A DNA stretch of 39,948 bases from sequence record OM908436.1; one strand, 5' to 3'. The stretch comes from Escherichia phage TM1. Every line of letters starts with the position of its first letter. Position 1 is the stretch's first letter. Below the pieces are notes generated by a model. The model was not told the DNA's origin. It ran no database searches and was given only the letters and a program-made list of their open reading frames with translations. Positions 4,060 through 39,948 of this stretch are shown one piece after another. Position numbers and translations under genes: made by a program.

Positions 4060-4404
4060 CTAGCAGTCCTCCTCTTCGTCTGCCTCTTCAGCCTCAAACC
4101 ATACCACATCACGGCTATTAGACACGTCGTTATAAAGTGCCTCATAGATACGAGCTTGCAGTATACGCGTCACATCCTTGGTCTCAGGCATCAGCCCAGA
4201 GTCTTCGAACTCATGGTCAATACCATCAGCAGCCATCACCGTAAAAATCTCGTGGTAATAGTGCGGTACCTGACCATCTACTACCTCATGCAGCGCATCA
4301 TGATAATCATCGCCTTCAGCTATTTCGTCGCACTGAATACGCTCATTGAACAGCTCAACGGTTGCAGCCAGCAGCTCATAGTATGCGTTAGCGTTACGTT
4401 CCAT
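4060..4404 (-). CDS. ocr: Ocr-like anti-restriction DNA-mimic protein (T7 gp0.3 homolog)
   Basis: 114 aa, acidic; [50 protein letters not shown] aligns with T7 Ocr [50 protein letters not shown]; acidic C-terminal tail. Confidence 0.88.
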
Positions 4405-4433
4405 AGTTATATCCTCTCAAAGTTAAGTATGTG

Positions 4434-4485
4434 TTAGTGACTATCATTCAGGCCGCTAGAAGCTAACGACCTGTAGTTAATCACT
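4434..4485 (-). promoter_or_regulatory. Conserved early intergenic RNA hairpin element, copy A (candidate RNase III site)
   Basis: TTAGTGACTATCATTCAGGCC...GACCTGTAGTTAATCACT, same architecture as copy B. Confidence 0.45.
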
Positions 4486-4762
4486 AGTAGGCTACATCTT
4501 TAAGTGCATTCTTAAGCATGGTCTCTATGTGTGAATCCTTCACGTTAGCCATATATCCGCCTATCACTTGCACTTCTGCATTATTGCTGGCAATTATTTC
4601 CTGCGACTTTTTATGGCCCACTCCATGATAACAATCCCACATGAAGCGCTTGAACGTTAGACCATTCTCTTTGTAGCGCTCGGCTTCTTCCGCCACTCCA
4701 CGTAATAATCTTGATTCTAACTCCTTGCGGAAGGCGTCTGCTGTAGCTTTGTTCAGTCTCAT
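4484..4762 (-). CDS. First early gene, hypothetical protein (92 aa)
   Basis: ORF with Shine-Dalgarno TAAGGA 6 nt upstream of the ATG; first ORF downstream of the sigma70-like promoter and leader; no recognisable motif. Confidence 0.5.
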   Translation of the reverse strand: MRLNKATADAFRKELESRLLRGVAEEAERYKENGLTFKRFMWDCYHGVGHKKSQEIIASNNAEVQVIGGYMANVKDSHIETMLKNALKDVAY

Positions 4763-4779
4763 AATGAATCCTTAGGTTG

Positions 4780-4862
4780 TTAGTGACTATCAGTCAGGGC
4801 CTTCAGTCGCTCAAGTCAAGCCCGTCTCGCGGTAGACTCAAAGACCCTGTAGTTAATCACTG
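4780..4862 (-). promoter_or_regulatory. Conserved early leader RNA hairpin element, copy B (candidate RNase III site)
   Basis: Contains the TTAGTGACTATCA and CCTGTAGTTAATCACT flank blocks shared with copy A. Confidence 0.4.
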
Positions 4863-4884
4863 TCGGCGCACATTAAGAGTTTAT

Positions 4885-4962
4885 CCAGATTGTTAAAGAG
4901 CGTTCGCGTTGGCTGTCGTCGCCGTGCTATCCCGTTTCAGTGTTGGGACTCACCGTTGTTTC
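4885..4962 (-). promoter_or_regulatory. Leader segment resembling the T7 R0.3 RNase III site region
   Basis: Transcript GAAACAACGGTGAGTCCCAACACTGAAACGGGA...CGCTCTTTAACAATCTGG closely resembles, from memory, T7 GAAACGACAGTGAGTCACCACACTGAAAGGTGA...CGCTCTTTAACAATCTGG. Confidence 0.5.
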
Positions 4963-4977
4963 GTGTTGATGTGGTGC

Positions 4978-5007
4978 ATACTACTTTAAGTCTGTACATC
5001 TTGTCAA
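4978..5007 (-). promoter_or_regulatory. Host sigma70-type early promoter (T7 A3-like): -35 TTGACA, -10 TAGTAT
   Basis: Transcript-strand ACAAAACGCTTGACAAGATGTACAGACTTAAAGTAGTAT parallels T7 A3 ACAAAACGGTTGACAACATGAAGTAAACACGGTACGAT (from memory). Confidence 0.55.
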
Positions 5008-5284
5008 GCGTTTTGTTTAGCCTGTTAACCTAAACCGTGAGCTATAGCCCCTCAGTGGGCGACCCGTTGCCTCCTCTAGCTCTCCACCTCAGTGGTAGAC
5101 TTGGCGAGCTGGTCAGGCTCTCGTTAGGTTGTAGGACCTTTCCGACCTGCTGAAGTGGGAGCCTCCAGCGACCCTACTGCTTTCTGTCATCTGCCTGTTG
5201 TTCGTATGACTTATCAGGCTGTCTACTTAACCGGGATGACCCGGCGTCTTCACTATCCGGTGTTTGCCGTGTCGTGTTGACGGA

Positions 5285-5320
5285 AGCTATTAGGCCATAG
5301 TCTAGACCTATAGTCAATAT
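5285..5320 (-). promoter_or_regulatory. Possible second host-type early promoter (A1-like; -35 TTGACT, weak -10 CCTAAT)
   Basis: TTGACT followed by a 17-nt spacer and CCTAAT on the transcript strand; weak -10, so tentative. Confidence 0.3.
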
Positions 5321-5429
5321 GTAATTTGAAATAATATTGATTAAGCTATCGTCGGCCCCATAGTGACTAAGAGGATATAGTCTTTGACTAACATGTCTTA
5401 GACCTTAAGTCTATAGCCATTGTGTCTAT

Positions 5430-5780
5430 TAACTGTAGGTTTAGACTGTAGGTAGCGGCAGTACCGATGGTCGATGACTGTAGGTAGTTAGACTGTAGGT
5501 AGTGACTCAAGGTCTGATACAGATGGAGACTCAGAGGCAGACCCATAGTCCCTACCTATCGTCTCCACCTCCAGCCATAGCCGATACCTATCGTTGACCT
5601 GAAGTCTTGACCATCGGTCCAGCCTTATGATAGACTGGGGTAGGGCCTTTGGTCTGGACTTAAAGAGGGCCTATGGGGAGACTTGAGGTTCTTGAACTGT
5701 GAGATGTGGTCTCAAACTTTTGGTCCAAAACTCATCGAAGACTGTAGGTGGCAGCTACTGTAGGTCAAGGACCGTAGGTC
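5430..5780. repeat. Candidate genome termini / concatemer junction: two arrays of ACTGTAGGT-type short repeats flanking a roughly 240-bp segment that may be the collapsed direct terminal repeat
   Basis: ACTGTAGGT at about 5432, 5445, 5477, 5492 and again at 5741, 5757, 5771 (one ACCGTAGGT variant); no ORFs; sits between gene 19 and the early promoters, like the CCTAAAG repeat arrays beside the T7 terminal repeat. Confidence 0.45.
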
Positions 5781-5939
5781 AGGCGACACTAGGATAGACC
5801 AATAAGTAGGATGACCCTAAGTGAGCTTCTATTAAGGTGTTACCTAAAGTCCTTGACTACAGTAGCTAAGGTCAGTAGAGTAGCGTAAGCTATGAACTGA
5901 CCTTAGGTCTTCCGCTCATGAATCGTTACCATGATTGCG

Positions 5940-6098
5940 TTAATTACACTGAGACACCAGAGAACATACGAGAGTCTCGACCCACCCGACCCACTGACTT
6001 CCAGCAGTAACGCCAGCAGTAAGTAGAACAGCAGCAAGAAACCTGTATGTAGCTCGATTGGTCGCCAGAGCTTTAAGTACAGCTTTGGTCTTTGCCAT
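5940..6098 (-). CDS. Small hydrophobic protein (52 aa) at the gene 19.5 position
   Basis: ATG preceded by AGGAGG at about 8 nt; MAKTKAVLKALATNRATYRFLAAVLLTAGV...; below the ORF-track size cutoff, hand-translated. Confidence 0.4.
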   Translation of the reverse strand: MAKTKAVLKALATNRATYRFLAAVLLTAGVTAGSQWVGWVETLVCSLVSQCN

Positions 6099-6278
6099 AT
6101 GCTACATACCTCCTGTATCTATGGTCGGTGACTATCTGTATTGGAGGGATTATGATTAATATCACCCTCCTTCCATCGGTGCAAGCCTTAGGTAAGAACT
6201 CGGAGTCTGCCTCCTAAGGTCTTGCATAAAGTCTGCATATGTATATTCACTACAGTAATACTATAAGTAACCGGGGGT

Positions 6279-6301
6279 CTTCCCTATAGTGATAGTTAAG
6301 T
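6279..6301 (-). promoter_or_regulatory. Phage-RNAP promoter downstream of terminase (phiOR-like)
   Basis: ACTTAACTATCACTATA/GGGAAG. Confidence 0.65.
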
Positions 6302-6395
6302 CCAAACTCCTTGTAAAACAGTAGGTTAGACTGGTAGTAACTATAGGTTACTAACTGCTTATTAATTCAGTTTTCGCCTATAGTTATTCATTCAG

Positions 6396-8159
6396 TTAGT
6401 GGAACGTAACGTATGACCCTAGTCCTAGCTCGTCGTCCGTATCGTGAGTTACCCTGACCCCATTGTCCCAGAACTCGGTGTGGATGGACTCGAAGCCTTT
6501 CCGTGGGTTCTCCATCTGTTCCTCCAGCCACTCCTCAGTGACTTCACGTTCGCCTTTGTTGGCATCCTTAGCCATCGACTCAACGAAGAACTGTACACCG
6601 ATAGCCAGCGCATCAAGTCGGTCATCGTGTGCCAATGCTCCACGTTCACGAGAGATACGGGTCATCTGGTAGAAGAGAGAGTAGATAGGGTTACGAACAC
6701 CATCCTTATCAGAGGCTGACTGGTAGTCTTGGACGATAGCAGAAGCGTTAACGATAAGTCGGTGAGACCCCATGATAGGCTCCAGAACGTCACAGATGCG
6801 GAGTTCTTTCTGACCCTTACTCTTCACTTCAGTTACAGCAGCAGGATGGATACGGGCAGCTACAGGCTTGAATAGCTCAAGGTACATACCATCGCCGAAG
6901 TTACCCTCAATGACGTATTCGTTGACCTTCCACTTACGACCAATCTTAGCCAAGGCTTCCAGCGTAGAGTCTTCATAGCCACCGCGCATACCACCAACTT
7001 CCATAGCGAAGATGTAGCCGTTGAGCTGGTACAGTACCGCATAACCAGTTTCATCCTTACCACGACCACTAGGGTCAATGACCAGAATCTTCTGGGTGTA
7101 CGAACTGAAGGCAGAACCTACAGTCTGATACGTGTGGTACGAGTCACCCATGAGTCCAACGTTAGGAACGTCCTCACGCTTGTTCTTAGGGTTCGGCAAC
7201 CATTGGTAGACCATTGGGCTAGACTCTGGGTCCAAGTCTGCTACGATAAGGTCACGGAGCTTCAGAGGGTACTTCTCTGCATCACTCAGGTTCGGGTTAA
7301 GCATGAACTGTAGAGCGAAGCCAGCTTTACCATAGGACAGTTCACGTTCCTTCAGGTCCGTATCATCGAATCGTACTTCATCGGTAGGACGCCAGTAGAA
7401 GGACTCAGGGTCCTCTTCCAGCTCTGCCTGAAGCATAGGAGCCAGACGGTCGCCGTAAGACTGCCAGTCCTTCTTATCACGTGGATAACGAGCAGGCCAG
7501 ATAGTAGTGGTGTATCCACGGCCTTCAAGCTCACGATACAAGGTCATCTCGTTCTGAGGAGTACCCAGATAGATGATTGTACCTCCCGGCTTCAGGATAG
7601 CGTCGAACTCTTTCACAAGCTCTGACAGACGGTCTCGTGCAGCTTGAGTCGCTGAGTTGTTCGGAACCTCCACGTCATCTGCAATCAGGATGTCAGCACG
7701 ACTACCAGTCAACTGACCAGTGATACCAACGGACTTAACCGAAGGTGAGTGGTCTGGCTTGGCTGGTCCAACGTCGAAGCTGATAACCGCATCTCGCTGC
7801 CCCTGCTTAGGTTTGAGTTCCTGAAGCTGAGGCATGAGGTCGATGATTCTCTTGATGAATATGGAGTTAGCATCGGCTCGTTCCTTTGAGGCCGACACAA
7901 TCATGAACTTCAAGTCTGGGTTGTTCCATAGTTTCCAGACCACGAATGCACACGTAATGAAGGACTTCCCGATACCACGGAACGCCTGTAGGATGAAACG
8001 CCTGTTGTCCCCAGCCGATAGTTTCTTCGCCATGTCAATCTGACAGCGAGTCGGGACCGGGAGTGATAGAGCTTTCCACAGGACGAACAGGAAGAACACG
8101 AAGTCTGCCTTCATACGGGCAGTCATTAGCGCCTGACGCGCCACTAAGTCTTTACTCAA
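6396..8159 (-). CDS. gp19: Terminase large subunit (T7 gp19-like)
   Basis: 587 aa, same size and position as T7 gp19; last structural-module gene before the terminal region; start overlaps the spanin stop. Confidence 0.9.
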
Positions 8160-8706: not shown

Positions 8707-8970
8707 TTATTGAACGCCATACCCTGTGTCATTATCCTCAGTCGCTGAAAGCACCTTATCGTACTCTGCGTTCAGGGCCTCCATATCAGCCAGCGTCTTC
8801 TCGTCCACAGACACCTTGCTTAACACAAAGTTGTGGCGAGCAAGCAGCTTCTCAATGGCGTTGTAGAGCTGAGGTGAACGCTTAGAGTCATCCCGCAGGT
8901 CTTGCAGCATGAGTCGAGCACGTTCAGTATCTAGCATTAAGAGGAACTTCTCTAAGTCCATCTGCGTCAT
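8707..8970 (-). CDS. gp18: Terminase small subunit (T7 gp18-like)
   Basis: 87 aa, position between holin and Rz-like genes; size matches T7 gp18. Confidence 0.75.
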   Translation of the reverse strand: MTQMDLEKFLLMLDTERARLMLQDLRDDSKRSPQLYNAIEKLLARHNFVLSKVSVDEKTLADMEALNAEYDKVLSATEDNDTGYGVQ

Positions 8971-39631: not shown

Positions 39632-39948
39632 TTAAGCGAATGCAAAGTCTGAAGACAAGATGTCTTCGATATTCAGTTTACCTTTCTTCGGAAGCTCAGG
39701 CAATTTGTCGCGCTGGCTCTCGTGGAGCTGGTATTCAAACTGCTCGTAGAAGTCAAGCAGCACATCGTTATCGCGGTAGGTCTCTACCATCGTCTCACGG
39801 ACGCCACGGAACAGATACTCAGCGTCAGCCGGGATGGTCCCGAAGCTATCGTGAATCACTGCGAATGACATCACGCCATATTTGCGGTGCGTGTGGACTA
39901 CAGTCTTGCGGAGGTGGCTACCATCTTGTGAGTGGACGAAGTTCGGGC
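39632..39948 (-). CDS. gp1: T7-type RNA polymerase, C-terminal part (stop codon 39632-39634); same gene as 1-2492
   Basis: HDSFGTIPADAEYLFRGVRETMVETY...LHESQRDKLPELPKKGKLNIEDILSSDFAFA matches the T7 RNAP C-terminus HDSFGTIPADAANLFKAVRETMVDTY...LRDILESDFAFA. Confidence 0.92.
   Translation of the reverse strand, partial: PNFVHSQDGSHLRKTVVHTHRKYGVMSFAVIHDSFGTIPADAEYLFRGVRETMVETYRDNDVLLDFYEQFEYQLHESQRDKLPELPKKGKLNIEDILSSDFAFA
39822..39948. repeat. Exact duplicate of window bases 1-127 (assembly overlap)
   Basis: See feature at 1-127. Confidence 0.8.

Follow-up and report, generated by a model that had tools for sequence, protein, structure and literature searches.

Heptamer arrays on both sides of a predicted terminal repeat at the probable K1F-like concatemer junction of Escherichia phage TM1

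The window analyzed here is the whole stretch of 39,948 nucleotides from Escherichia phage TM1 (sequence record OM908436.1) which, judging by its sequence, is a Kayfunavirus (K1F-like, T7 group) genome assembled as a circle. The minus strand carries all the long ORFs and every match to the phage promoter core and is referred to below as the phage strand. Positions 1–127 are identical to positions 39,822–39,948, and this exact 127-bp overlap of the window ends points to a circularized k-mer assembly, in which a direct terminal repeat would have been collapsed to a single internal copy. The unique sequence measures 39,821 bp; with the second repeat copy added, virion DNA would come to about 40.0 kb. 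The first early gene starts at 4762, to the left of the junction in window coordinates, and the junction region sits where the two genome ends are expected to meet. Over 1.8 kb around the arrays the DNA shows 91–94% identity to many Kayfunavirus records, and it is colinear with K1F and EcoDS1 across the junction.

The stretch from 4763 to 6395 is the longest one on the phage strand devoid of ATG-started ORFs of 60 aa or more, with the exception of positions 1–1609, which lie at the contig end and were set aside as ORFs running off the end were unscored. It was previously described as the only long non-coding region, which is approximately correct except that it contains the conserved 52-aa gene 19.5 (5940–6098, minus strand). 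The features assigned in and around this stretch are the following:

4978–5007, minus strand: putative second host-type early promoter, TTGACA-18-TAGTAT, with 10/12 consensus matches
5281–5317, minus strand: putative first early promoter for the host RNA polymerase, TTGACT-17-CCTAAT region, with homology to a host promoter annotated in EcoDS1
5432–5500, minus strand: left-end-side array, predicted counterpart of T7 SRL, with four exact copies of ACCTACAGT (5500–5492, 5485–5477, 5453–5445 and 5440–5432)
5517–5524, minus strand: ATCTGTAT, putative counterpart of the class II pause signal, directly after the terminal repeat
5525–5704, minus strand: predicted direct terminal repeat of about 180 bp, one collapsed copy, from alignment to the ends of K1F, EcoDS1, SH3 and SH5
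5705–5740, minus strand: conserved unique spacer of 36 nt, CTTCGATGAGTTTTGGACCAAAAGTTTGAGACCACA, between the right trio and the repeat start
5741–5779, minus strand: right-end-side trio, predicted counterpart of T7 SRR, with ACCTACGGT (5779–5771) and two copies of ACCTACAGT (5765–5757 and 5749–5741)
5842–5863, plus strand: two inverted heptamer-like copies, ACCTAAAGT at 5842–5850 (T7-type unit) and CTACAGT at 5857–5863
5866–5906, minus strand: palindrome with an 11-bp stem (CTAAGGTCAGT / ACTGACCTTAG) around a 19-nt loop, centered 182 nt before the repeat
5940–6098, minus strand: gene 19.5 homolog, 52 aa, annotated from EcoDS1 gp19.5
6279–6301, minus strand: phage RNA polymerase promoter phiOR, ACTTAACTATCACTATAGGGAAG, 23 nt identical to EcoDS1 phiOR, reading toward the junction
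6396–8159, minus strand: gene 19, terminase large subunit (PF22530 Terminase-T7 RNaseH-like, E = 6e-38)
8707–8970, minus strand: gene 18, terminase small subunit (PF11123 DNA_Packaging_2, E = 5e-12)

On the plus strand the repeat unit ACTGTAGGT is found exactly at 5432–5440, 5445–5453, 5477–5485, 5492–5500, 5741–5749 and 5757–5765, and ACCGTAGGT at 5771–5779 is a seventh copy with one mismatch. Since the genes lie on the minus strand, the natural reading strand is minus, and the unit there is ACCTACAGT with the core CCTACAG. The start-to-start spacing in the left array is 15, 32 and 13 nt. With no more than one mismatch allowed, the window contains 40 matches to the unit, compared with 11.4 ± 3.0 in shuffled sequences; the phage strand has ten copies of the 9-mer where a first-order Markov model predicts 0.2, and six of these copies are inside this 350-bp stretch, and the location of 6 of 20 CCTACAG copies within 340 bp has a simulated probability of about 1.5e-5. 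The clustering of the heptamers is far beyond chance. The four copies at 5432–5500 and three at 5741–5779 listed in the preliminary description were thus all recovered, and the orientation is identical in 7/7 of them. The segment between the two clusters (5501–5740) does have the 240 bp attributed to it but is not strictly repeat-free, as it contains weaker repeats such as ACGATAGGTA, present twice.

The inverted heptamer-like copies at 5842–5863, with the orientation opposite to that of the arrays, lie just downstream of the palindrome. There is also an 11-nt perfect inverted repeat at 5753–5763 and 5857–5867 (AGCTACTGTAG / CTACAGTAGCT), present in EcoDS1 as well, which joins the middle copy of the trio to the inverted heptamer beside the palindrome. 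A 10-nt perfect inverted repeat is formed between 5457–5472 and 5609–5624, with GACCATCGGT falling in the left array's 32-nt gap and its inverted partner ACCGATGGTC within the terminal repeat; the same pair is found in SH3 and SH5.

Outside 4763–6395, CCTACAG occurs 14 and 9 times on the two strands against about 2 expected, ranking 3 and 11 among approximately 12,500 heptamers. No strand polarity was seen for the copies outside the junction, the heptamer being over-represented on both strands. The genome-wide excess of CCTACAG is also characteristic of K1F, while CCTAAAG in T7 shows no such excess. Most of the TM1 copies outside the junction lie in coding DNA, and some are found in promoter-like or ribosome-binding contexts.

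For the comparison of genome ends, virtual junctions were assembled from the record ends of T7, T3, K1F, EcoDS1, SH3 and SH5, and the layout of T7 and T3 was checked on NC_001604 and NC_003298, respectively. The predicted terminal repeat runs on the phage strand from TCTCACAGTTCAAGAACC to CTGAGTCTCC, and the alignments place the left genome end at 5704 and the right one at about 5525, with an uncertainty of 5521–5526. The first base of the K1F record is homologous to 5704 (TCTCACAGTTCAAG...) and the last one to 5526, and the ends of this record share an exact 178-bp repeat; the K1F terminal repeat has been published as 179 bp (cited in PMC4925675). The EcoDS1 record, with a ‘terminal repeat’ annotated at 1–178 and a ‘concatemeric junction’ at 177–184, maps to 5704–5525. 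The ends of SH3 and SH5 come from run-off sequencing on virion DNA (PMC4925675), and SH3, SH5, NS1, Ro45lw, Ro103C3lw, IMM-002 and T3 all have records starting at the base homologous to 5704. TCTCACAGTTCAAGAACC, located at 5704→5687, is the same in K1F, EcoDS1, SH3 and SH5 and close to the sequences of T7 and T3, with the left terminus fitting the conserved TCTCA(C/T)AG. Seven IMG/VR contigs ending with the repeat do so 179–223 nt after TCTCACAG.

The 240-bp gap between the clusters would accordingly consist of the 36-nt spacer (5740–5705), the 180-bp repeat and 24 nt starting with ATCTGTAT. It had been proposed that the two clusters bracket the terminal repeat at a concatemer junction in the manner of T7 and that this be checked against the junctions of related phages. 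Homology supports the proposal: the predicted repeat would fill 180 of the 240 bp between the clusters, and the ends of K1F, EcoDS1, SH3 and SH5 align inside the gap.

Providencia phage EPr2, which carries ‘DTR’ annotations, was rejected as a repeat reference as its four repeat copies have inconsistent neighbors. The annotation of this genome (OM256482.1, 41,261 bp) shows a 179-bp terminal repeat four times, with two internal copies; the middle of gene 19.5 adjoins one copy, and DNA immediately downstream of phiOR adjoins another. Four matching places are likewise present in PP328844.1 (41,264 bp). Either the junction module is truly duplicated in these two records, or their fourfold repeat is an artefact of assembly or processing.

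In T7, three CCTAAAG heptamers lie inside the 160-bp repeat, eight are found at 175–338 just past the repeat and two are located before its right copy, and T3 has a similar layout. Dunn and Studier are said to have named the T7 arrays SRL and SRR in their 1983 description of the T7 genome. The K1F group possesses CCTACAG in four to seven copies after the repeat and one or two exact copies before it, with the variant CCTACGG in most members. T7 and T3 resemble TM1 in having heptamers of the same orientation in unique DNA after the left and before the right repeat copy, a direct terminal repeat of 160–231 bp that starts with TCTCA(C/T)AG and is followed by ATCTGT, and phiOR and gene 19.5 upstream of the repeat. 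The TM1 core CCTACAG differs from CCTAAAG of T7 and T3 by one substitution, and the pitch is 13–16 bp in TM1 as opposed to mostly 12–13 bp in T7 and T3. The TM1 repeat contains no heptamer copies whereas the T7 repeat has three, the arrays comprise 4 + 3 copies in TM1 and 8–9 plus several in T7, and there is no clear phiOL promoter after the left array of TM1, unlike in T7 and T3. The unit had been reported to differ from the CCTAAAG type of T7, which is true for one base, although on the phage strand the two are not very different; the larger apparent difference arose because the other strand had been read.

Every lineage has a heptamer of its own, namely CCTAAAG in T7 and T3, ACCTGAG in K11, CCTACAG in the K1F group and CTTAGTG in SP6. 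The repeat is directly followed by (A)TCTGT in T7, T3, the K1F group, K11 and SP6, and in T7, T3 and K11 the boundary consists of CCCT followed by ATCTGTT. Outside the T7 group of phages, the cosB R sites of lambda and the pacL/pacR regions of SPP1 contain several short repeated sites beside the cleavage site and distinct from it, a multi-site arrangement expected for an oligomeric small terminase. Their likeness to the TM1 arrays is a functional analogy with no sequence relationship, and the TM1 arrays, unlike these regions, bracket a repeat that is duplicated during processing.

Twelve Kayfunavirus junctions made up the comparative set. The junctions of K1F, EcoDS1, SH3, SH4/SH5, PE3-1, ZG49 and ST31 are orthologous to that of TM1 and approximately 81–94% identical to it overall. 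They share with TM1 the repeat termini, the right trio, the 36-nt spacer, ATCTGTAT and the heptamer, and differ from it only in how many copies the left array has and how these are arranged, as well as by point changes within the repeat's right third. In 14 IMG/VR loci, as in the reference phages, the trio CCTACGG-n7-CCTACAG-n9-CCTACAG hardly varies. Identity to the window is 0.91–0.99 for the right trio, the 36-nt spacer, the initial 100 nt of the repeat and ATCTGTAT, compared to 0.81 for the last 80 nt of the repeat and 0.49 for the 16 nt past ATCTGTAT. Across the 12 junctions the left array measures 79–259 bp and has 3–15 heptamers (four in TM1); in the relatives it contains CCTACAG mixed with CCATAAG/CCATAGG and often holds runs of identical 15–16-bp units. 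Out of 73 left-array spacings, 61 are 13–16 bp and most of the others are about double that, meaning that the motif and the pitch are kept while the left array turns over. One metagenomic contig, IMGVR_UViG_3300045988_000155, is, at 39,948 bp, exactly as long as the window and only 82–96% identical to it in mosaic segments, with a different left array; the metagenome it comes from contains at least four Kayfunavirus contigs.

The spacer at 5705–5740 has a mean identity of 0.95 in 11 relatives, and a 40-mer across the boundary between the spacer and the repeat is found exactly in 14 IMG/VR contigs. On the other side of the repeat, ATCTGTAT matches ATCTGTT of T7 at 6/7 positions, shows 0.99 identity across the relatives and is kept in all 12 Kayfunavirus junctions; EcoDS1 and K11 have this spot annotated as ‘concatemeric junction’. 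The T7 concatemer junction carries a class II pause/termination signal for the phage RNA polymerase (bioRxiv 10.1101/2021.01.11.426313). The T7 signal occupies the same place, abutting the right repeat boundary, with TM1 having ATCTGTA(T), so that the seventh base differs. Due to this mismatch being at a position reported as change-intolerant for the T7 polymerase (bioRxiv 10.1101/2021.01.11.426313), pausing by the TM1 polymerase is an assumption.

The palindrome at 5866–5906 has a predicted folding energy of −11.2 kcal/mol as DNA (z = −3.0), and in EcoDS1 its stems are kept while the loop has diverged. T7 and T3 possess palindromes in an equivalent position, with the centers 190 and 184 nt before the repeat, respectively, although their sequences are unrelated to that of TM1. 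A hairpin near this position was reportedly proposed by Chung, Nardone and Hinkle in 1990 as an intermediate of repeat duplication. No Pfam match was obtained for the gene 19.5 homolog.

The putative promoter at 4978–5007 is homologous by sequence to the EcoDS1 host promoter at 609–647. The sigma-70 scan gave 6 sites against 3.2 expected, with 5007–4978 being the only convincing one, and a sigma-70 ‘promoter’ at 5768–5741 was rejected since it consists of the heptamers themselves. A scan for intrinsic terminators found none, and an Rfam scan of 4400–6500 on both strands returned no match with E ≤ 1. At 5355–5366 on the minus strand, where T7 and T3 have phiOL, there is a promoter-core-like sequence, TCACTATGGGGC, which stems from a 2-nt insertion relative to K1F and EcoDS1, neither of which shows the resemblance.

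On the basis of sequence homology the region is, with a probability of about 0.88, a K1F-like concatemer junction in which the arrays are the counterparts of SRR and SRL around one collapsed copy of the terminal repeat. The junction module is complete, including phiOR, gene 19.5, the palindrome, the host promoters and the T7-type terminase genes; cleavage at the repeat boundaries is expected of the gene 19 product, and the gene 18 product is a candidate reader of the junction. By analogy with T7, the phage RNA polymerase starting from phiOR (6301–6279) would transcribe gene 19.5, the palindrome, the right trio and the repeat, pause at ATCTGTAT (5524–5517) and there meet gp18 and gp19. In T7 the paused RNA polymerase was reported to interact with gp18 and gp19, starting maturation and packaging (PMC3276506). 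The terminase would then cut at the repeat boundaries and the repeat would be duplicated, leaving a copy at both ends of each packaged genome, as in T7.

As for the arrays, our tentative suggestion, which we favor but hold to be short of probable, sees in them redundant accessory sites, with a recognition or an architectural role, for some part of the packaging complex that the phage itself encodes, the small terminase being the most plausible one. On this view the arrays would label and shape the DNA flanking the repeat and would be neither cut sites nor an essential signal. A phage-encoded reader is favored because phages with E. coli as their common host have heptamers specific to their lineage, and also because of the placement on both sides in one orientation and the survival of the motif through array turnover. 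An insertion screen in T7 has shown the majority of genome-end loci to be non-essential, except for positions 142 and 162 at the boundary of the repeat and the junction (PMC11482910). Given this tolerance, the arrays are at best redundant, if not dispensable. T3 and T7 are reported to package only their own DNA; since they would discriminate in this way despite sharing CCTAAAG, the heptamer cannot be the specificity determinant. No explicit description or functional test of the arrays was found in the literature searched.

The turnover of the left array among close relatives (79–259 bp, 3–15 units, with runs of identical 15–16-bp units), together with the tolerance of insertions at most T7 genome-end loci (PMC11482910), suits a different explanation, according to which the arrays, or at least the left one, are functionless slippage-prone satellite DNA persisting beside the repeat because this DNA encodes no protein and undergoes repeated recombination and replication at concatemer junctions. 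We regard it as rather unlikely, though worth serious attention, because the heptamer core and the 13–16-bp pitch survive all the rearrangements and the right trio is nearly invariant. Moreover, same-orientation arrays flank the repeat in T7, T3, K11 and SP6, each lineage having its own heptamer, and such analogous arrays with different heptamers suggest independent maintenance rather than drift. The heptamers might also mimic promoter cores and hold or slow the phage RNA polymerase, aiding transcription-coupled cutting; in that case polymerase parked at the arrays flanking the repeat would link transcription to its cutting and duplication. CTACAG and CTAAAG are each one base off the promoter core CTATAG, two promoter-like sites, CTAAACTATCACTGTAGGAC, at about 37,175 and 36,099 on the minus strand have as their core ACTGTAGG, the unit's reverse complement, and a role of the phage RNA polymerase at the junction is documented (PMC3276506; bioRxiv 10.1101/2021.01.11.426313). 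Mimicry nevertheless appears improbable, mainly because the best-matching orientation is inconsistent between lineages, being reverse in the K1F group and forward in T7 and T3. In addition, the arrays have no upstream recognition element (−17 to −8), the K11 heptamer is unlike the K11 promoter core, and the likeness extends over just 6–8 nt of a near-palindromic core and may be due to chance.

Of still lower probability is the proposal that the left array, located 115–220 nt upstream of the first host-type promoter (5317–5281), is bound by a regulator, from the host or the phage, that acts on the early promoters directly downstream, given that the same motif recurs beyond the repeat, where it lies downstream of the late genes and at a great distance from any early promoter in virion DNA, that the heptamers differ among phages with E. 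coli as a common host, and that the distance between the array and the promoter varies by 180 bp among relatives. Direct repeats with a regular pitch in non-coding DNA are also what replication-origin iterons look like, and secondary origins of T7 are associated with phiOL and phiOR. This interpretation is hardly credible, however, as replication in the T7 group is primed through transcription by the phage RNA polymerase and is not known to involve an iteron-binding initiator, no initiator-like ORF lies beside the arrays, and the arrays track the repeat boundaries in all relatives and not a promoter. There is virtually no chance that the repeats belong to a small protein-coding gene, despite the ATG-started 52-aa ORF at 5388–5546 (minus strand) spanning the left array and the hypothetical proteins annotated here in the GenBank records of relatives. 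This ORF would cover both unique DNA and the terminal repeat, across the physical genome end, and its coding role was rejected as array indels occur in units of 13–16 bp, which are not multiples of three; no reading frame would thus be conserved, and the small ORFs annotated here cannot be conserved genes. The idea of primase sites, suggested by many units ending in GTC, was rejected by inspection as well since the preferred T7 primase contexts are absent, and it is further undercut by the T7 units, which are followed by GTC, GAC or GCC indiscriminately.

Arrays beside the terminal repeat are a classic, already known feature of the T7 group, and near-identical copies of those described here are present in public records, so the finding is biologically nothing new in kind. 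For TM1 itself, the homology-based assignment would fix the genome ends (left at about 5704 and right at about 5525, minus strand), with the 180-bp repeat at each end of the roughly 40.0-kb virion DNA, and the correct orientation for annotation follows from it; the small ORFs that several database records show across this region are probably not genes. Any functional model of the arrays would have to accommodate a right trio that is invariant, a left array that is hypervariable, a heptamer and a 13–16-bp pitch that are kept, and heptamers that are lineage-specific. If the heptamers are lineage-specific docking sites co-evolving with a junction factor encoded by the phage, or promoter-core mimics, the difference between CCTACAG and CCTAAAG would represent a natural specificity switch.
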